Assembly: GCA_945483255.1 (NCBI GenBank)
Contig: CALYRP010000001.1
Location: forward strand, 1-25,691
DNA length: 25,691 nt
Source: an uncultured Pseudomonadota bacterium
GTDB taxonomy: Bacteria > Pseudomonadota > Alphaproteobacteria > Rs-D84
Direction: 5' to 3'
Shown: piece by piece, positions 1 through 24,442 of the stretch
Layout: every line of letters begins with the position of its first letter
How positions within the stretch are numbered: the stretch's first letter is position 1
The notes under the pieces: generated by a model
Told to the model about the DNA's origin: nothing
The model's input: the letters and a program-made list of their open reading frames with translations, nothing else
Databases searched by the model: none
Made by a program: the position numbers and the translations under genes

Positions 1-2242
1 AACGGAAACCTGTGACATCTTTACCATCCATACAATCTTTAACGATTTTATTCTGTTTCATGGTTTCAATTTTTGTTTGTAACAAATTATTTAAACCGCT
101 GATAATTGCTGTTATTTGTGGGTTACTTGGCATCGCATAATCACCCCCAAGCTCACTATTGTAATAAAAACCATATGTTGCGGCGGCTGCATTTGATTTT
201 TTGCCATTTTCATCTAATTTTGTATATTCGATACCGTTTACATTAAAACGATTACGTATATGTGGCGTAACACGTCCCATAACAATATCTTTTTGTGTAA
301 ATTCATTTGCAGAATTATGGCAATCTTCATCAGAATCTGACGTACATAATTTAACAGTCAACAAACCATCAAATGAAATATTACCCAAATCCAATGATTC
401 ACAATCTTCGGCACCGCCACAAACGGAAATCATTGCTTCTTTGGCTGCATTTTCACAACGCGCATATAACGCATCATTGATTTGTAATGCATAACCCTGG
501 GCTATATCGTATATGTATTTATAAATTTTATCTTGGTCGTTTTTGTTTTCTTCTTTACATGCCGTCAATGTGTCGGTTGGCAACAAATCCGCAATTGAAC
601 CCGGATTCAATCCAACACAGTACGAAAAATCTTCGCCACAGATTGCTTCGATACCCGCCTTGACTTCTTTTGTACATGCATCAACACGCAATGCTGCCAA
701 CATTGATTCAACCCCCATCCACAAACGTGATTGTTTCAAAGTTGTTCTATTTTGCGTATCTGATACAGATCCACCCGTTGCAACAATGCAAGATTCTACA
801 CGAATTTTGCATGAATCATACAACAACATTGGGTCGGACAAACACATATCATAATTTTTTGCGTCTGATTCTGGATTCCATTGTTGTGCACATGAATTGT
901 GGAAACAGTCTGCAACATTTTTAATACAGTTCTGACGAGCATCATCTTCGGCATTTAATTCCGCAGATTTTAATGCTGTCGCTGCACCTTCGATATATTT
1001 ATCCCAAACCTGGGCACGATAGTTTTCGCAATGAACCAAAACTTCGTCATCACAGATTGTTTTCTTGGACAACAATTGATTCATTGTTGAACCAGACAAA
1101 ACGATATCAACAACACCTTTGATTGTTCTGTCTTTGACTTTACCCGCGCCACCCATCATGTTTTCCTGGGCTGACAAAGTTATACATTTTGAATAATCAT
1201 CACCGCATTCATTTTGCATACAACGTGCATATTCTTGAACACATCCACCAAGATTATATTTATTCTTGTCTTTGAATTCATCCAATGCCGCATCACGCAA
1301 AGCTTTTTCTGCGGCTTGTAATTTTTGTGTGCTGGCAATTTTTTGCTGTTTCAAACTGTTTTCAAATGCCATACAGTCTGATTTAATCTTTTGTGCATAA
1401 ACATTTTGCAACATTTTAACCGATGCATTACATTTTGCCGGCATTTGTGCAATACACATTTTTGCAGCATCTGTATATAACGCATCACCTGTTTTGCTTA
1501 ATGCGTTTGAAACCGCAGACGCATCAACACTTATATCAACATTATCAAAGATATCTTCATCTTCGCTGAAAATATTGTTATTCCACGCAGACAAATCCAA
1601 TGTGCGTACTTTCTTTTGATTTTCTTGTTTCTTTTCTTCAACCGTTACTTTGTCCGCAGCCGCCTTGGCACGTGCAATAATTTGATCTGCACTTTCACCC
1701 ATTTGGATACGTTCAACACCTTCGGTTGCCATCAAATAACTTTGTTCGTCTAATTTTGCGATATCGTCCATAACAGATGTTAATTCAGTATTTCTGTTGC
1801 TGCATTGACAACGTCCACCTGACGCATTATCAATCATACAGAACGAATCCATACATCCGTAAAACGCATCCTGACATTCTTGGTCAATCACTGTATTAGA
1901 CGCCGCAGATGCAACCTTGGTTCCATTGTTAATAACCTTTTGTGTTGCACCAGCACGTGCCGCCATTGGTTTTGGTGCAGATGCATTATTTGATACAACC
2001 GTTTGTTTTTTCCCGGCACGCGCGGCAACATTACCAGATGTCGCATTTGATGTTTGGACATTATTCGCAACCTTTTGACGCGATGCCGCACGCGCTGCAA
2101 CCGGCGCAGATTGTGTCGTTACCGCTGCATTATTTGCCGCCGCCGTTCCACGTGCATTACCACGTGTTGCAGGCGCTGCAAAAGCCCCAAAATCAGCCAT
2201 ACACAGCGACAAAACCAAAGTCAAAAACATACGATTACGCAT
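1..2242 (-). CDS. Large secreted Cys-rich hypothetical protein, at least 747 aa, runs off the window's left edge (absent from the ORF track)
   Basis: ATG at 2242 follows SD TAAGGAG. I read the frame from 2242 to 2 by hand and found no stop. It starts MRNRMFLTLVLSLCMADFGAFAA (signal-peptide-like), then an Ala/Arg-rich linker, then motifs such as CQDAFYGCMDSFCMIDNASGGRCQCS. Confidence 0.9.
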   Translation of the reverse strand, partial: MRNRMFLTLVLSLCMADFGAFAAPATRGNARGTAAANNAAVTTQSAPVAARAASRQKVANNVQTSNATSGNVAARAGKKQTVVSNNASAPKPMAARAGATQKVINNGTKVASAASNTVIDQECQDAFYGCMDSFCMIDNASGGRCQCSNRNTELTSVMDDIAKLDEQSYLMATEGVERIQMGESADQIIARAKAAADKVTVEEKKQENQKKVRTLDLSAWNNNIFSEDEDIFDNVDISVDASAVSNALSKTGDALYTDAAKMCIAQMPAKCNASVKMLQNVYAQKIKSDCMAFENSLKQQKIASTQKLQAAEKALRDAALDEFKDKNKYNLGGCVQEYARCMQNECGDDYSKCITLSAQENMMGGAGKVKDRTIKGVVDIVLSGSTMNQLLSKKTICDDEVLVHCENYRAQVWDKYIEGAATALKSAELNAEDDARQNCIKNVADCFHNSCAQQWNPESDAKNYDMCLSDPMLLYDSCKIRVESCIVATGGSVSDTQNRTTLKQSRLWMGVESMLAALRVDACTKEVKAGIEAICGEDFSYCVGLNPGSIADLLPTDTLTACKEENKNDQDKIYKYIYDIAQGYALQINDALYARCENAAKEAMISVCGGAEDCESLDLGNISFDGLLTVKLCTSDSDEDCHNSANEFTQKDIVMGRVTPHIRNRFNVNGIEYTKLDENGKKSNAAAATYGFYYNSELGGDYAMPSNPQITAIISGLNNLLQTKIETMKQNKIVKDCMDGKDVTGFR

Positions 2243-2268
2243 AAAAATCTCCTTATACCTTTTGTGTA

Positions 2269-2297
2269 ATTTTATCATAAATAGAAAATTCGCGCAA
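2269..2297 (-). promoter_or_regulatory. Candidate sigma70 promoter of the large secreted gene
   Basis: TTGCGC (2297-2292), 17-nt spacer, TAAAAT (2274-2269), with TG at the extended -10 position. Confidence 0.6.
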
Positions 2298-3561: not shown

Positions 3562-4590
3562 TTATTTATAAGGGTCTTCGTATTTTTTTGCCAATTCAGC
3601 AATATTTTCAGGTGGCCATCCTGGAACTTCCATGCCCAGTGACAATCCCATTGCTTCCAATTGGACTTTGATTTCGTTCAAAGATTTGCGACCGAAATTA
3701 GGTGTTTTCAACATGTCATTTTCAGTCTTTTGAACCAATTCGCCCAACCAATTAATCTTGTCGTTTTTCAAGCAATTTGTTGCACGAACAGACAATTCCA
3801 ATTCATCAACATGTTTCAACAATTTTGCATCGAATGGCAAAACATCTTTTGCTTTTTCTTCATCAGATGCAGCATTGATTTGTGTTGGATCTTCGAAATT
3901 GATAAATACTGTCAATTGATCTGTCAAAATACGCGCAGCAAATGCAATTGCATCTTCTGGTGTGACAGAACCATTTGTTTTAACTGTTAATTCCAATTTA
4001 TCGTAATCTGTTGATTGACCGACACGTGTTTGGGATACCGCAGATGCCACATTCAAAATTGGTGAATAAATGGAATCCACAGGAATTGTTCCCAATGGCA
4101 AATCAGCAGCATTAACAGATGCAGGAACATAACCACGGCCTGATGCCAATGTGATTTCCATATCCAACGATGCACCATTGTCCAATGTGCAGATTTCTGC
4201 ATCTTTGTTCATAACTTCGACGCTGGAACTTGTTTCAATCATACCAGCAGTAACTACGGCTGGGCCTTTGACCTTGATTGCAGCTTTGTGTTGACCTTCG
4301 CTGTTGGCTTTGAAATAAACACCCTTTAAATTCAAAAGGATATCTGTAACATCTTCGCGAACGCCGGAAATGCTGCTGAATTCGTGTTGAACGCCATCAA
4401 TTTTAACATAAATTGGTGCGCATCCTTGCAACGAAGACAACAATACACGACGCAAAGCGGTGCCAAGTGTTAAACCAAAACCTTTTTCCAAAGGTTCAGC
4501 AATCAATGTTGCGATATTAGGATTTTTTTCATCGACTTTGATATTCAATTTTTTTGGCTTTATCAAAGTCATCCAGTTTTTTTCAATCAT
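3562..4590 (-). CDS. rpoA: RNA polymerase subunit alpha
   Basis: [31 protein letters not shown] and [12 protein letters not shown] motifs. Start placed at MIEKNW (4590), behind SD GGAG, rather than 4602. Confidence 0.98.
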
Positions 4591-4658
4591 TTTATACTCC
4601 ATCAGGCTTAGTTTATTATTTTCACCAGATTTACACGATTTTTCAATTGTGCCCGCGA

Positions 4659-4687
4659 ATTTTATATCAAAAAATATCGAAAGTCAA
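4659..4687 (-). promoter_or_regulatory. Candidate dedicated sigma70 promoter for rpoA
   Basis: TTGACT (4687-4682), 17-nt spacer, TAAAAT (4664-4659), then a GC-rich discriminator TCGCGG. It begins 4 nt after the stop of the Cys-rich gene. Confidence 0.75.
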
Positions 4688-4691
4688 TTAA

Positions 4692-6608
4692 TTATTGGTC
4701 TTGTTTGATGTTTACATAATCCCTAAAATATTTTACCACATTAAATCCCGGCAAATCAAAAGAAGTACAATAGCGACCGCTATCTTCGCAACCATCTTTC
4801 TTTTTACAACTTGTGTTGTAACATAATCTTGCTGGGAACAATTGACATGCCAATGGTGATGTACAACCTTTCCATTTATTGCCAATTTGATCCGAACAAA
4901 CCGTTGTACCAGATTCATCTTTTTCTGCAATTGTGGCGGTACCTATTGGACATGTGGTACATTGCGAAGAACCTACAAGCGAATAAGTATCTTCATTGCA
5001 AAGCTGTTTATTCTTACATAACATATTTTCTGTATCACAATAATATCCAGCTGGACACTGGGTACATGCGTCATCTTCAACACACGATCCCTTTGGGCAC
5101 GCTCCACATTTGTTGGTATTTTGGTTTGGGTATTCGCCCGCAGGACACATTTCACACCAATCTTCGCCTTTGCTGAAATCTGCATCTGATTTTATAATAG
5201 ATCTTTCACCGCCTTTGATGTTTTGCGATTCCAACACATATGTTTTTTTCGCAGCATCATATTTATATATAACTTTTGTACTGCTGTCGCACACAGATTT
5301 GTCTGTATTTAATTTTATCTGGCAACTGGTTATACCTGTTTGATTATCATCGCCAGAGAACACATACATTTTTCCACTTCCAATATATTCAGGAGCATCA
5401 CAACTTGCACATTTTTTTTCGGTTGGATCTATGTATCGACCGTTGATGCCCTTACAAATTTCTTCGGCAGATTGGTTTTCGTTTGTTGCACCGGTTCTAC
5501 TGAGTGTGCATTCGCTTGCACCCCCGGCTGCATAATACCCAGACTCACATTTGTTCTTTATACCTTTTACGCAATAATAACCTTCTGGACAGCTTACACA
5601 TTTTATATTCCCTTTTTCTGTCCCGGTTGCATCTGCAGCAAAATAACCAGCATCACACTCGGCGCAACCGATATTTAAACCATTCTTTGTTATAACCGCT
5701 TTGCCATCGCCAGTGCATTGTGTACAAGATGTATTTCCTTCTCCGCTGGCGTAAAAGCCAGAATTACACTTGTCGCAAGATGCCGTTCCTGGGTTTAATG
5801 CAGACGTCCCGGCTGGACATGATGAACAAGACGCGGCACCTGCCGATGAATATTTCCCGGCAGGACATGATGAACAAGATGTATTACCTGTTCCACTGGC
5901 ATATGTACCAGCAGAACATGTTTTACAAGACGAACTACCTGTGCTACTGGCATATCTACCCGCTGGGCATGATGAACAAGATGTATTACCTGTTCCACTG
6001 GCATATGTACCAGCAGAACATGTTTTACAAGACGAACTACCTGTGCTACTGGCATATCTACCCGCTGGGCATGCTGTACAAGACGCGGCACCTGCCGATG
6101 AATATTTCCCAGCTGGACATGGTTTTTTCCCCCCACCTGAATTATAATACACTGGATTTGTATTTCCACCGGGACAATAATACCCAGCTGGACAATCATA
6201 ATCTGTATAAGATTTTGTACTATTTGAAACCCTATATTTTTTTCCAGGAACAAATCCATAACACTTTGTAATACTTGATGTACCAGTCGCAGAAAACTGA
6301 AAGCCAGAAGGGCAACGAAATGCATATGAACATATTTCTTCCCCGCCCTTTTGTTCGGGGCTGGATCCGCCTTCAGTTGAAGCACAATGATTTTGCAATG
6401 CCTTTGTAGTCCATGCACAATTATGATTTCCTGATGCGCCGGGGCAATAACATCCAGGCGCACAATCATATGCAATTGTATTAGAACACATATCGCCCGC
6501 ATCAATTCCAGAAACACAACTGTAACCCAAAACATCAGTTGCACTGCCAACAAAGGTCAACACCAATAACAATTTTAATAAACAAAAAAATCTTTTCTTT
6601 CCATCCAT
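4692..6608 (-). CDS. Secreted cysteine-rich repeat protein (~638 aa, ~60 Cys; GCC2/GCC3 or ephrin-receptor-like CxxCxxGxY repeats)
   Basis: Long clean ORF with basic N-terminus and hydrophobic signal (KKRFFCLLKLLLVLTFVGSA) and many CPAGxY...CxxC units. Preferred start is 6608 because the 6620 ATG lies inside the -10 box. Confidence 0.9.
   Translation of the reverse strand: MDGKKRFFCLLKLLLVLTFVGSATDVLGYSCVSGIDAGDMCSNTIAYDCAPGCYCPGASGNHNCAWTTKALQNHCASTEGGSSPEQKGGEEICSYAFRCPSGFQFSATGTSSITKCYGFVPGKKYRVSNSTKSYTDYDCPAGYYCPGGNTNPVYYNSGGGKKPCPAGKYSSAGAASCTACPAGRYASSTGSSSCKTCSAGTYASGTGNTSCSSCPAGRYASSTGSSSCKTCSAGTYASGTGNTSCSSCPAGKYSSAGAASCSSCPAGTSALNPGTASCDKCNSGFYASGEGNTSCTQCTGDGKAVITKNGLNIGCAECDAGYFAADATGTEKGNIKCVSCPEGYYCVKGIKNKCESGYYAAGGASECTLSRTGATNENQSAEEICKGINGRYIDPTEKKCASCDAPEYIGSGKMYVFSGDDNQTGITSCQIKLNTDKSVCDSSTKVIYKYDAAKKTYVLESQNIKGGERSIIKSDADFSKGEDWCEMCPAGEYPNQNTNKCGACPKGSCVEDDACTQCPAGYYCDTENMLCKNKQLCNEDTYSLVGSSQCTTCPIGTATIAEKDESGTTVCSDQIGNKWKGCTSPLACQLFPARLCYNTSCKKKDGCEDSGRYCTSFDLPGFNVVKYFRDYVNIKQDQ
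5866..6073 (-). repeat. Exact 102-bp in-frame tandem duplication inside the Cys-rich gene
   Basis: The copies starting at 5866 and 5968 are identical. An identical 33-nt block also occurs at 5826-5858 and 6078-6110. Confidence 0.95.
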
Positions 6609-6615
6609 GTTTGGG

Positions 6616-6645
6616 ATCATAGCAAATTGTGTTTTTATTTGTAAA
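6616..6645 (-). promoter_or_regulatory. Candidate extended -10 promoter for the Cys-rich gene (probably leaderless)
   Basis: TTTACA (6645-6640), 18-nt spacer, TATGAT (6621-6616) with extended TG; the ATG at 6608 is 7 nt after the -10 box and has no SD. Confidence 0.55.
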
Positions 6646-6690
6646 GCCCTATTTTTGTTTTTTATGGTTTTACCAATTATTCCTGGTTAA

Positions 6691-6861
6691 TTCCGCCCCC
6701 GTGGGGAGGGGGACCACGAAGTGGTGGCGGGGGTATTCCGGTTTATCCATTCATGCGAACGGATGGGATTAACCCCCTCCCGGCATTGCCGGCACTCCCC
6801 CATGCTGGGGGAGAACACCCCCTCCTGGCTTCGCCGGCACTCCCCCATTCTGGTGGAGAAC
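6691..6861. repeat. Cluster of three GC-rich REP-like palindromic elements (ACCCCCnCC-hairpin-CTCCCC..GGGG.G type)
   Basis: Direct 45-bp copies at 6772 and 6817 are 40/45 identical. A diverged inverted copy lies at 6691-6734. Each has two small hairpins. Confidence 0.85.
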
Positions 6862-6887
6862 AAAAAACCGTCCAAAAATGGACGGTT
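6862..6887 (-). terminator. Intrinsic terminator after rpsK
   Basis: AACCGUCCA-UUUU-UGGACGGUU followed by UUUU on the minus strand, 20 nt after the rpsK stop. Confidence 0.85.
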
Positions 6888-6907
6888 AAATCGCAATCAT
6901 GCAAATA

Positions 6908-7291
6908 TTAGACACGACGGACTTTCTTTGGACGGCACCCATTGTGTGGAATACGGGTCGTATCTGTGATTGATTGAACAATCAATCCTGCATTTGCCAA
7001 TCCACGTACGGCCGATTCACGACCTTGACCAATACCACGCATCAAAACATCAACTGTTTTCATTCCCATTTCAGCAACTTTTTTGCCAACTGCATCTGCA
7101 ACAACTGTTGCGGCATATGGTGTTGATTTTTTTGCACCTTTGAAATTATTAGCACCCGCAGTTGCCCATGTCAATACGGCACCTGTTTGGTCTGTGATTG
7201 TTATACGTGTATTATTGTTTGTTGCAACCACATGTGCAATTCCATGTGATACTTTTTTTACAACTTTCTTTTTTGATTTTGTAACTGCCAT
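6908..7291 (-). CDS. rpsK: 30S ribosomal protein S11
   Basis: NNTRITITD, GAKKSTPYAA and DTTRIPHNGCRPKKVRRV motifs. Start MAVTK at 7291 with SD AAGGA. Confidence 0.98.
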   Translation of the reverse strand: MAVTKSKKKVVKKVSHGIAHVVATNNNTRITITDQTGAVLTWATAGANNFKGAKKSTPYAATVVADAVGKKVAEMGMKTVDVLMRGIGQGRESAVRGLANAGLIVQSITDTTRIPHNGCRPKKVRRV

Positions 7292-7348
7292 TTTTTTTCC
7301 TTTAGATGTCTTCAATTAACTATCGTGTTAATCTCTACCCAATTTTGA

Positions 7349-7726: not shown

Positions 7727-7749
7727 CTTTTATTTTCCTTTTTTGCTTG

Positions 7750-7839
7750 CCACCCAAAGCCTTGGCAACGGGTGGTTAATTTATTCGAATGTTTCCATTC
7801 GTACCCTGAATATTCAAAATCCACACGTTTTTTGAATAT
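7750..7839 (-). promoter_or_regulatory. Structured rpsM 5' leader (three hairpins)
   Basis: Stems AUAUUCAAAA/UUUUGAAUAU (7839-7810), CGAAUG-GAAA-CAUUCG (7801-7786) and CCACCC/GGGUGG (7775-7750). Confidence 0.5.
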
Positions 7840-7862
7840 CCTCTGATTTTCACAATAACCCA

Positions 7863-7891
7863 AATATATCATGCGATTATGTAAAAATCAA
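7863..7891 (-). promoter_or_regulatory. Candidate promoter for rpsM-rpsK
   Basis: TTGATT (7891-7886), 17-nt spacer, TATATT (7868-7863), with extended -10 TG, right after the secY stop. Confidence 0.6.
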
Positions 7892-7897
7892 ATTTTC

Positions 7898-23620: not shown

Positions 23621-24442
23621 TTAGAAATCAATACCGAATTTAGCACCAAATCCAAATCCGTTTTCAACTTCCCATTCGTCATCGTGGTCACCACCTTGGT
23701 GATTCATTTCGGCATTTACGTATGCACCAACGAATTTTGTAGCATCGATATTATAATTTACACCCAATTCACCGGTCCATAAACCAGCATTTTTGATTTT
23801 TGCGCCATCAATACCACGATATTCTTTGTCTAAAACACCGGTATATTCTACACCAGCCAATACAGACCAATGAGAATCAATCAAATATTGACCGTCCAAT
23901 CCTAATGTTACGAAATGCATACCTTGTTCGCCTGCACCTTCATTCCAATTAAACGATTCTGTATTCCAATAAGTGAACAATGCGTGTGCTGCAACTGTCC
24001 AATTGGATGCTACATAACCACCGCGAACACCGGCAGTCCATGCATAACCTGTATCGTCCTTGTCCAAGAAAGGCCTATGATTTCCCCAAACAGGGTCTAA
24101 ACCATATGCACCAACCAAATCCAATTTCCATGCACCCATGTCTAATGCACGATATGCAGTTGCTAATGATAAATCACCCCAAGACCATTGGTCAAAAGAT
24201 TGTTCATCATTAATTGTTGTAGAAACCATAACTGCCCATTTATTTGTGATACCATAACCAAATTCTTCACCCATTGCCCATGATTTCAAATCTTTTGAAC
24301 CTGTATGAGATTCCAATGTTGATACACTGTAAAAATGACCCTGACCAGGCAAATATAATGGACTTTCATCAAATACGTTTGCAGCGTGTGCCCCAGAAAC
24401 TGCGAATACTGCCAATAATGAAGTCAATGCTAATTTTTTCAT
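23621..24442 (-). CDS. Outer-membrane beta-barrel protein (porin-like)
   Basis: Signal peptide MKKLALTSLLAVFAVSGAHA, alternating aromatic/hydrophobic strands and C-terminal beta-signal GFGAKFGIDF; strong SD. Confidence 0.85.
   Translation of the reverse strand: MKKLALTSLLAVFAVSGAHAANVFDESPLYLPGQGHFYSVSTLESHTGSKDLKSWAMGEEFGYGITNKWAVMVSTTINDEQSFDQWSWGDLSLATAYRALDMGAWKLDLVGAYGLDPVWGNHRPFLDKDDTGYAWTAGVRGGYVASNWTVAAHALFTYWNTESFNWNEGAGEQGMHFVTLGLDGQYLIDSHWSVLAGVEYTGVLDKEYRGIDGAKIKNAGLWTGELGVNYNIDATKFVGAYVNAEMNHQGGDHDDEWEVENGFGFGAKFGIDF

Follow-up and report, generated by a model that had tools for sequence, protein, structure and literature searches.

Tandem cysteine-rich units of the GCC2/GCC3 type (Pfam PF07699, Ephrin_rec_like) occur in the elongated extracellular rod of Chlamydomonas Mst1 (PDB 8tx1, 8wa2, 9b4h), a filament-forming eukaryotic ciliary-hair glycoprotein of ≈1990 aa, and the cysteine-rich domains of tumor necrosis factor receptors (TNFR), ELAPOR1 and Eph receptors are disulfide-laddered modules of the same broad kind. 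The variant-specific surface proteins (VSPs) of Giardia also form a variable coat rich in cysteines and in CxxC motifs; these motifs bind zinc, and the proteins have a C-terminal transmembrane helix followed by a short conserved cytoplasmic tail and come from a multigene repertoire of which one gene is expressed at a time. In small-genome bacteria with a host- or partner-dependent life, the Mycoplasma Vlp/Vsa and Anaplasma Msp2/P44 proteins combine conserved ends with a hypervariable middle that gains and loses repeats; their variation arises inside a single strain, through phase switching or through gene conversion that draws on silent cassettes. Here, we describe a gene for a cysteine-rich protein with a GCC2/GCC3-type array (positions 4692–6620, minus strand), located between rpsK and rpoA in 25,691 nt of DNA from an uncultured alphaproteobacterium (contig CALYRP010000001.1). 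The whole stretch of DNA is referred to below as the window.

The window protein has the module type in common with Mst1, which contains no counterpart of the ≈75-aa module or of the C-terminal module described below. The animal receptors have transmembrane and signaling parts that are missing from the window protein. The likeness to Giardia VSPs is one of apparent working principle; the VSP model PF03302 is unmatched at E ≤ 1, and there is no C-terminal transmembrane helix. Unlike in Vlp/Vsa or Msp2/P44, variation is seen here only from species to species and in a pair of alleles that are 97% identical, and no silent cassettes or paralogs of the gene were found in the 25.7-kb window with blastn or tblastn. 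Large bacterial proteins with PF07699 arrays are the other comparison. Hundreds were found, exemplified by P0237, a “DUF4215 domain-containing protein” from a Myxococcales metagenome-assembled genome (MAG); they share the repeat family, but most are far longer and carry other co-domains (Flg_new, RCC1, NHL). The literature searched offered no functional characterization of these proteins, and none is known from a ribosomal gene cluster or to contain the mid and C-terminal modules. The open-access literature searched likewise held nothing on cysteine-rich proteins of the Enterousia/Rs-D84 lineage, to which the window belongs, or on the rpsK–rpoA slot.

A GCC2/GCC3-type array with two modules new to Pfam and PDB

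Translation of the open reading frame (ORF) gives 642 aa followed by a stop codon; an alternative start at a second ATG (6608) would give 638 aa. With either start, the protein contains 61 cysteines (9.5%), compared to 1.03% (70/6810 residues) in the remaining 30 ORFs of the window, of which the highest single value is 4.1%. One cysteine, at residue 13, lies within the N-terminal hydrophobic stretch, leaving 60 in the mature part. The 10 family members that could be scored with the signal-peptide rule described below contain 60, 34, 54, 8, 56, 52, 30, 6, 36 and 68 mature cysteines, an even number in 10/10. Fifteen CxxC motifs are present, and eight pairs with the spacing CxxC-(12..15)-CxxC; in 2000 shuffles of the same protein sequence, the corresponding means were 5.7 (maximum 13) and 0.17 (maximum 3). 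Between residues 168 and 302, the cysteine spacings alternate between 3 and 13–14, reflecting an array of 17-aa units of the form CPAGxYxxxxGxxxCxxC. The first-pass annotation, made from the letters alone, had described 61 cysteines with one in the signal peptide, an even mature number and repeated cysteine units, and the residue counts and shuffles agree with it on all of these.

That annotation had also proposed a GCC2/GCC3 assignment and a profile check against PF07699. The profile scored 82 bits, far above its gathering cut-off of 23.1 (E = 2.6e-23, nine stretches). Only four Pfam families were found at E ≤ 1, the other three all below their cut-offs: PF23091 (27.7 bits, cut-off 33.2), PF00020 TNFR_c6 (10.4 bits, cut-off 29.4, E = 0.95) and PF07562. 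The Giardia VSP model PF03302 gave no match at E ≤ 1, nor did the Pfam models of ciliate immobilization and surface antigens and of apicomplexan wall proteins; the likeness to these three groups that had been suggested thus did not extend to their Pfam models. NCBIfam returned nothing for the protein. A phage, plasmid or defense origin was considered and dropped, as 0 families of PHROGs or PADLOC matched and tblastn against phages and plasmids (low-complexity filter on) was empty.

Word-indexed protein searches produced 635 matches at E ≤ 1e-3 among proteins of 353–1124 aa and 781 at E ≤ 1e-10 among those of 1125–3210 aa. Named eukaryotes are mixed in these sets with proteins that have bacterial-type co-domains, including Flg_new (PF09479) in at least seven of the 120 matches listed from the first search, and RCC1 repeats. 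The Myxococcales protein P0237 is among the PF07699-type matches, and PF07699 clusters in the Atlas carry the labels Bacteria, Archaea and Eukaryota. The repeat family is already known and is abundant in bacterial-style database proteins. Of the earlier description of the protein as “eukaryote-style”, the repeat family stands, whereas the eukaryotic label was overstated. A published account places the origin of Ephrin_rec_like in ancient eukaryotes and views one bacterial case as a horizontal transfer (PMC6993872).

The protein starts with a predicted signal peptide (residues 1–27; 6540–6620, minus strand, as for all features of the gene), MIPNMDGKKRFFCLLKLLLVLTFVGSA|TD, identified with a crude rule for positions −3 and −1 of the cleavage site that was positive for 3 of the 31 window proteins. 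It is followed by an N-terminal cysteine-rich region with irregular cysteine spacing (residues 28–142; 6195–6539), in which a GCYCPG motif is common to the window protein, its relative P0135 and the proteins of loci L005 and L006. The GCC2/GCC3-type array, delimited by the Pfam stretches and the list of units, covers residues 143–371 (5508–6194). Within it, Tandem Repeats Finder detected a 102-nt tandem duplication (5866–6083; 2.1 copies, 98% matches) that gives rise to two identical 34-aa double units at residues 184–251; in P0002, which is 97% identical to the window protein over 641 aa, four residues differ between the copies. A second block of GCC2-type units, defined in the same way as the array, is found at residues 489–560 (4941–5156).

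Between the two blocks lies a mid-module of ≈75 aa (residues 393–470; 5211–5444), flanked by CxxC pairs, with the consensus LYxF..G..SC.(L/I)KLN...S.C..GT.V.Y.Y....Y. The window protein has one copy and its relatives have 1–4. When 1.84 billion representatives were searched exhaustively by HMMER with residues 372–488, just 15 proteins matched at E ≤ 1e-3; one of these matches is spurious, and the matched family proteins have similar signal peptides. Alignments delimit a family-specific C-terminal module (residues 573–642; 4695–4904) with the pattern ..GC.S..AC....LC...C.., followed by a cysteine-free tail (FNVVKYFRDYVNIKQDQ) that in the family is centered on KI.S.N.SV.K. The mid-module has no relative in Pfam or, by profile search, in the PDB, and its look-alikes in the Atlas score <0.9 and all belong to TNFR/GCC2 clusters; the C-terminal module also has no relative in the PDB. 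Both modules are thus new to Pfam and PDB. A search for a shared C-terminal secretion motif had been suggested earlier. When a profile of the C-terminal module was run over longer proteins, it matched 13 proteins, all of one small family, and the module was discarded as a candidate general sorting tag, although this is weak evidence because the search candidates had been picked via shared words.

P0135 aligns collinearly with the window protein (32% identity); the first 12 residues match exactly, and the mid and C-terminal blocks are shared. The architecture of the family, judged from such alignments, is one of conserved ends and a modular, variable middle. (In another relative, P0138, a Flg_new-like sequence is weak, at E = 0.019, under the cut-off.) Variation is also concentrated within the species: P0002 differs from the window protein at 21 residues, of which 12 fall within a patch at residues 365–456 (5253–5528), read by eye from the alignment, that makes up 14% of the length (binomial p = 5.6e-6). 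Repeat units were closer to each other within than between proteins in three of nine proteins (window, L002 and L078) and not in the other six. A general homogenization of repeats within proteins is therefore unsupported, and recent duplications appear to be merely sporadic; together with the 98% match of the 102-nt duplication, these lineage-specific unit duplications show that repeat turnover is ongoing.

A full-length AlphaFold2 model built from a 35-sequence alignment had a mean predicted local distance difference test (pLDDT) score of 62, with values of 77–98 at residues 161–310 and <50 at residues 25–123, 404–491 and 580–642. A second model, of residues 372–642 from the family alignment, reached a mean pLDDT of 80.6; in it, the β-rich mid-module and the next GCC2 units scored 88–95, while the last ≈40 residues were poor. 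The second GCC2 block (489–560) improved from 61–81 in the full-length model to 89–95 in the second. The N-terminal region was modeled unreliably (34–49), and the C-terminal module scored 34–51 across both models. The GCC2/GCC3 array is confidently modeled as TNFR-like, disulfide-laddered β-hairpin modules. The best PDB sequence match was Mst1 (8tx1, E = 1.3e-27, query residues 168–303), and Mst1 was also the first Foldseek match to the full model (E = 7e-14), followed by ELAPOR1, TNFR-family and Eph cysteine-rich domains, with E values from 5e-6 to 0.05. The TM-scores to Mst1 were low (0.14–0.28), as expected for flexible rods, so that only the type of module is taken to be shared. With the second model, Foldseek found only partial GCC2/TNFR-like matches in the PDB (TM 0.16–0.23) and nothing at E ≤ 0.001 among viral folds.

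The signal peptide predicts Sec export of the window protein, in line with the export proposed in the first-pass annotation. That annotation had noted no obvious barrel, lipobox or anchor, which holds for the motifs scanned: no lipobox, LPXTG, PEP-CTERM-like tail or C-terminal aromatic residue was found, and no motif or Pfam domain of the known surface-sorting classes (lipoprotein, sortase LPXTG, autotransporter barrel, type IX secretion system C-terminal domain, PEP-CTERM) was present. A second hydrophobic segment is missing: the highest Kyte–Doolittle value of any 19-mer is 1.91 within the signal peptide and 0.76 in the rest of the protein.

The rpsK–rpoA slot and divergence of its cysteine-rich occupant

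The window represents a long ribosomal-protein gene cluster, as seen from the ORF order and from Pfam matches to EF-Tu, S13, S11, RpoA and L17. The cysteine-rich gene lies between rpsK (6908–7315) and rpoA (3562–4590), with rplQ beyond rpoA, and rpsM and secY beyond rpsK. An adenylate kinase gene (adk) sits between secY and rpsM in many alphaproteobacteria; the ORF list contained no adk-sized ORF there (7727–7897). An RpoA scan of species-representative genomes retrieved 80 loci with 76–97% identity, all from Candidatus Enterousia or uncultured gut and rumen alphaproteobacterial MAGs, and the comparisons below cover the rpoA neighborhoods of these loci. The source organism belongs to the Candidatus Enterousia clade of the order Rs-D84, Alphaproteobacteria. 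Members of this clade are described as having genomes of ≈0.75–1.0 Mb and no tricarboxylic acid cycle, respiratory chain or standard transporters, and a partner-dependent lifestyle has been proposed for them (PMC12306168). Rs-D84 bacteria are reported from termites that harbor gut flagellates and from termites that do not (PMC11257099).

In 49 of the 80 loci, rpsK was found upstream of rpoA on the same strand; it was elsewhere in four, and absent from the DNA examined in 27. The gap between the two genes measures 22–208 nt in seven loci (L034, L054, L063, L069, L074, L076 and L079) and 518–4283 nt in the other 42. On the left, the slot is bordered by a terminator-like hairpin and T-run directly after rpsK (6866–6887, minus strand), with an equivalent hairpin in related loci. 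The right border is a promoter-like site of rpoA (TTGACT, 17 nt, TAAAAT; 4659–4687, minus strand) that starts 5 nt past the stop codon of the cysteine-rich gene; most of the 79 distinct sequences upstream of rpoA contain the element TTGACTT-N17-TATAAAAT. In the short-gap loci, the rpsK terminator hairpin abuts this element, which is followed by the conserved rpoA leader, and in L034 and L069 the terminator touches the −35 box.

A promoter-like site of the cysteine-rich gene itself (TTTACA, 18 nt, TG-TATGAT; 6616–6645, minus strand) was identified solely by its match to the consensus. The arrangement is kept in L003, with 85% DNA identity over 6646–6586, and in both the window and L003 (3621–3662) an ATG, at 6608 in the window, follows exactly 7 nt past the −10-like TATGAT, with no Shine–Dalgarno sequence. 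The mRNA may thus be leaderless. Alternatively, translation may start from the ATG at 6620 inside the −10-like box, which is also conserved (P0135 begins MIPNMDGKKRFF). No terminator-like site was found 3′ of the gene. Bracketed by the rpsK terminator and the rpoA promoter, and with a promoter-like site of its own, the cysteine-rich gene appears to be a separate unit outside the ribosomal operon.

By blastp, the window protein is related to the slot proteins of L001, L002, L003, L005, L006, L007, L009, L011 and L078. PF07699 scored above its cut-off in L002, L003, L004 (marginally, at 23.3 bits), L006, L007, L011 and L078; it was absent from L005 and L009, and the partial ORF of L001 had just a sub-threshold match to PF23091. 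At the same position, L043 encodes a 974-aa secreted protein with 69 cysteines; its membership in the family was tested and found unsupported (hhalign probability 9.5%; blastp E = 0.10 against the sister locus L009). In a tree of rpoA+rplQ DNA (80 rows, rooted only at the midpoint), the 12 rows with a cysteine-rich slot gene, the window included, form a single clade with a Shimodaira–Hasegawa-like approximate likelihood ratio test (SH-aLRT) value of 99, requiring one change of state, and the deepest branches under this root have an empty slot. The cysteine-rich ORF, on the plus strand in the 11 related loci, stops 81–130 nt before rpoA.

DNA conservation breaks off sharply at the slot. Against the related loci, blastn identity of 82–92% across secY, rpsM and rpsK stops at 6859–6908 and resumes at 4627–4696; in 6 of 10 loci it restarts at 4688–4696, i.e., at the stop codon, and a 60-nt stretch around the start of the cysteine-rich gene and its promoter-like site is shared by L003 alone. 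The flanking proteins are 84–100% identical (one local rpsM match, in L003, is at 70%), compared to 30–39% in the aligned columns of the slot protein, whose length ranges from 102 to 778 aa, or up to 974 aa with L043. Four pairs were usable for rate estimates; the L009–L043 row was dropped because L043 is unsupported as a family member, and the two rpoA rows with L002 were dropped because an in-frame stop broke the codon register. Nonsynonymous divergence (dN) of the slot protein was 0.55–0.73, compared to 0.025–0.034 for rpoA in the same four pairs, for which the synonymous divergence (dS) of rpoA was 0.43–0.79. The amino-acid divergence of the slot protein thus amounts to ≈0.9–1.7 times the synonymous divergence of rpoA, showing a roughly neutral overall rate, which does not by itself prove positive selection. 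The first-pass annotation had described neither the hypervariable slot nor this rate.

Other occupants of the slot in relatives include a 31-member small secreted family, a pair of 650 and 245 aa, further orphan families and occasionally housekeeping genes. The signal-peptide rule was positive for 81 of 170 ORFs of the slot or upstream region, with at least one in 56 of 71 loci; where rpsK was not found, the region counted was up to 5 kb upstream rather than a bounded slot. NCBIfam gave nothing near cut-off for the porin-like ORF of the window or for 15 proteins of related loci, most of them slot occupants. Contig breaks were also considered as a sign of hypervariability and rejected, with 18 ends within 2.5 kb upstream and 15 downstream of rpoA in the 80 loci (p = 0.73).

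Neighboring elements

The rpoA leader (4590–4690, minus strand) is conserved and consists of the TTGACTT-N17-TATAAAAT element, a hairpin whose sequence varies and, ≈20 nt before the Shine–Dalgarno sequence, an invariant box, GGYGAAAATRATAAACTAAGC. Read by eye, 78 of the 79 distinct upstream sequences contain the box, L079 being the exception. In an alignment of 60 sequences, pairs of the hairpin showed 15, 4 and 9 double changes, and the RNAalifold energy was weak (−2.3 kcal/mol). The leader had no match in Rfam and may be a cis-regulatory leader of the rpoA–rplQ unit. The true start of rpoA is probably the ATG at 4590 (MIEKNW...) and not the one at 4602: the ATG at 4590 is preceded, 7 nt upstream, by a GGAG, and in L002 an in-frame stop separates the two candidates.

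A G+C-rich (65–72%) insert of ≈200 nt (6647–6861) separates the promoter-like site of the cysteine-rich gene from the rpsK terminator. It includes two copies of a 45-nt direct repeat (6772–6861) and folds strongly (z = −3.6). The insert is missing from L003 at the same place, is unique in the window and the 80 loci, and had no meaningful match in Rfam. The short rpsK–rpoA gaps of L054 and L076 contain other G+C-rich palindromes. The insert may be a small mobile repeat.

A second secreted protein is encoded directly after rplQ at 2–2278 (minus strand), where the ORF runs off the window; it comprises at least 759 aa with 31 cysteines. It had no match in Pfam, NCBIfam, PHROGs, PADLOC or the PDB. 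Relatives are present in 52 of the 80 loci (22–80% identity, mostly 33–57%; 37–83% to the loci of the cysteine-rich clade), as a rule at the equivalent site but at times within the slot upstream of rpoA, and by these comparisons the protein represents a clade-wide orphan family. The small slot family noted above was seen in 31 loci (L008, L012, L013, L015, L017, L019, L053 and others) on either strand; its members have a signal peptide, ≈105–140 aa and an ETETYT-like motif past the signal peptide, and no Pfam or NCBIfam match. The porin-like ORF at 23621–24442 (minus strand) encodes 273 aa with a signal peptide, no cysteines and a C-terminal ...GIDF; it too had no Pfam or NCBIfam match. Its sequence suggests a small outer-membrane β-barrel, which would imply an outer membrane for the organism.

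In 12 loci (L018, L021, L026, L028, L032, L033, L035, L045, L049, L056, L068 and L080), no rpsK was found in the 5.3–6.0 kb upstream of rpoA, which indicates that the rpsK–rpoA junction is also a rearrangement breakpoint in the order. In L049, a serine recombinase is found upstream of rpoA.

Candidate roles of the cysteine-rich protein

The explanation that we favor, while giving it only about an even chance, is that the protein is a fast-diversifying, disulfide-paired rigid rod, extracellular or displayed at the surface, that acts where the cell meets a partner cell, host immunity or phage. Its strong divergence among related species speaks for such outward exposure. The 60 mature cysteines would pair after export into ≈30 disulfides, producing a stiff, protease-resistant rod that would either be displayed on the cell or be released from it. 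The conserved ends would serve for export and attachment, and the variable middle, chiefly residues 365–456, would form the exposed face, on which a binding partner, host antibodies, phages or grazers would exert pressure. Since a partner-dependent lifestyle has been proposed for the lineage, attachment to another cell would be the most likely role.

A number of points weigh against this explanation. No recognized anchor or secretion tag accompanies the signal peptide, so the protein, although presumed to pass the outer membrane, could remain periplasmic; the confinement of the C-terminal module to a family of 13 proteins is also unlike a general sorting tag. The even cysteine counts of the family are not independent, because its proteins are built from shared modules. 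A clade-wide bias towards even counts, which was considered as evidence for a disulfide system, looked strong in the raw values (106/152 against 146/309) and was rejected as such evidence, since it disappeared once the orthologs of exported ORFs were merged, leaving 18 clusters mostly even and 22 mostly odd. The oxidant for 30 disulfides is unexplained in a lineage reported to have no respiratory chain. In addition, the clade member L043 shows no detectable similarity to the family, synonymous sites in the slot gene are saturated (proportion of synonymous differences, pS, 0.67–0.72) and the repeat alignments partly forced, and a near-neutral rate fits relaxed constraint equally well as diversifying selection.

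Some of these points would suit a periplasmic or freely released soluble protein without an attachment role, such as a structural component or a ligand decoy, varying because little beyond the cysteine scaffold matters. In its favor, the signal peptide is accompanied by none of the known secretion tags and by no anchor, barrel or lipobox, the TNFR-like and ELAPOR1-like structural matches recall soluble ligand-binding ectodomains, and the C-terminal module is absent from other passenger proteins. A periplasmic housekeeping role, however, would not predict 30–39% identity beside flanks of 84–100%, nor lengths from 102 to 778 aa, and the clustering of within-species differences in one module suggests an exposed, selected face; we regard this possibility as unlikely, if still a serious one. 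We are somewhat more doubtful that the slot is simply a permissive site for dispensable, decaying genes and that the cysteine-rich gene is tolerated there under relaxed constraint. The empty slot in seven loci, the many unrelated orphan families in others, the similarity between its amino-acid divergence and the synonymous divergence of rpoA, the shrinkage of some members to 102–112 aa (L011 and L004) and the unrelated sequence in L043 could all be understood in this way. What such decay does not account for is the intact cysteine-rich ORF with a signal peptide in 12/12 clade genomes, always ending 81–130 nt before rpoA, or ORFs of up to 778–974 aa that are still open despite saturated divergence. 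Conservation moreover extends to the cysteine positions, to the N-terminus and to the C-terminal module, and the promoter-like site is kept in L003.

The origin and the chemistry of the cysteines allow two further alternatives. The gene could have been acquired recently from a eukaryotic donor (a protist partner or the animal host) and serve to mimic a host surface protein, a possibility towards which the first-pass annotation leaned: the best characterized relatives (Mst1, ELAPOR1, Eph receptors) are eukaryotic, protists live in gut and rumen habitats, and the account of Ephrin_rec_like cited above states an ancient eukaryotic origin and takes a bacterial case for a transfer (PMC6993872). Yet the single origin at the base of the 12-genome clade would make any transfer old. 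The best non-self matches are the metagenome proteins P0003–P0014 (212–281 bits), several with the bacterial Flg_new repeat, which score as high as the first named eukaryote, P0015 (211), and the mid-module and C-terminal module are without eukaryotic relatives. Base composition also speaks against a recent transfer, with a G+C of 0.38–0.44 along the gene compared to 0.37–0.41 in most of the flanks and 0.45 in rplQ; the slight elevation may be caused by the Gly/Ala/Cys-rich composition. The 17-aa units were judged too short for a tree of repeats to decide between bacterial and eukaryotic origin. Overall, we consider this scenario very improbable. We give even less credence to the idea that the cysteines bind zinc or iron through CxxC pairs and form no disulfides, although this would suit a strict anaerobe in which a respiratory chain is reported to be missing (PMC12306168), and although 15 CxxC motifs are available for it. 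The repeat array matches the extracellular cysteine-rich modules of solved structures both in sequence and in predicted fold, and the signal peptide and the even mature counts in 10/10 members also weigh against metal binding.

If the favored explanation of a displayed, disulfide-paired rod is taken further, the rpsK–rpoA slot might be an expression site for the main outward-facing protein of the cell, and the cysteine-rich protein, in this one Enterousia subclade, a VSP-like, disulfide-rich and species-specific coat or attachment organ with which these tiny, transporter-poor bacteria dock onto a partner cell and which diversifies in an arms race. We consider this extension speculative and rather improbable. 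If true, it would provide a bacterial counterpart to the cysteine-rich variable coats of protists, and a strict anaerobe without a respiratory chain would need an undescribed route to ≈30 disulfides per molecule.

The observations bear on the biology of the lineage and of the repeat family. Rs-D84 and Enterousia bacteria are widespread in animal guts, with genomes below ≈1 Mb and a proposed dependence on partner cells (PMC12306168). A secreted protein that is retained while diverging near-neutrally, and that has conserved ends and a module variable within the species, is an obvious candidate for their contact surface, and a target for antibodies, imaging coupled to fluorescence in situ hybridization (FISH) and binding screens. 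The slot is a terminator–promoter junction within the most conserved bacterial gene cluster that gathers orphan secreted genes across the order, and it would be useful both as a strain-typing marker and in the search for more surface proteins. Unlike the published account of Ephrin_rec_like (PMC6993872), the case strengthens the view that GCC2/GCC3 repeats are no eukaryotic specialty. It also raises a testable question, namely how 60 cysteines might be oxidized in an anaerobe without a respiratory chain.

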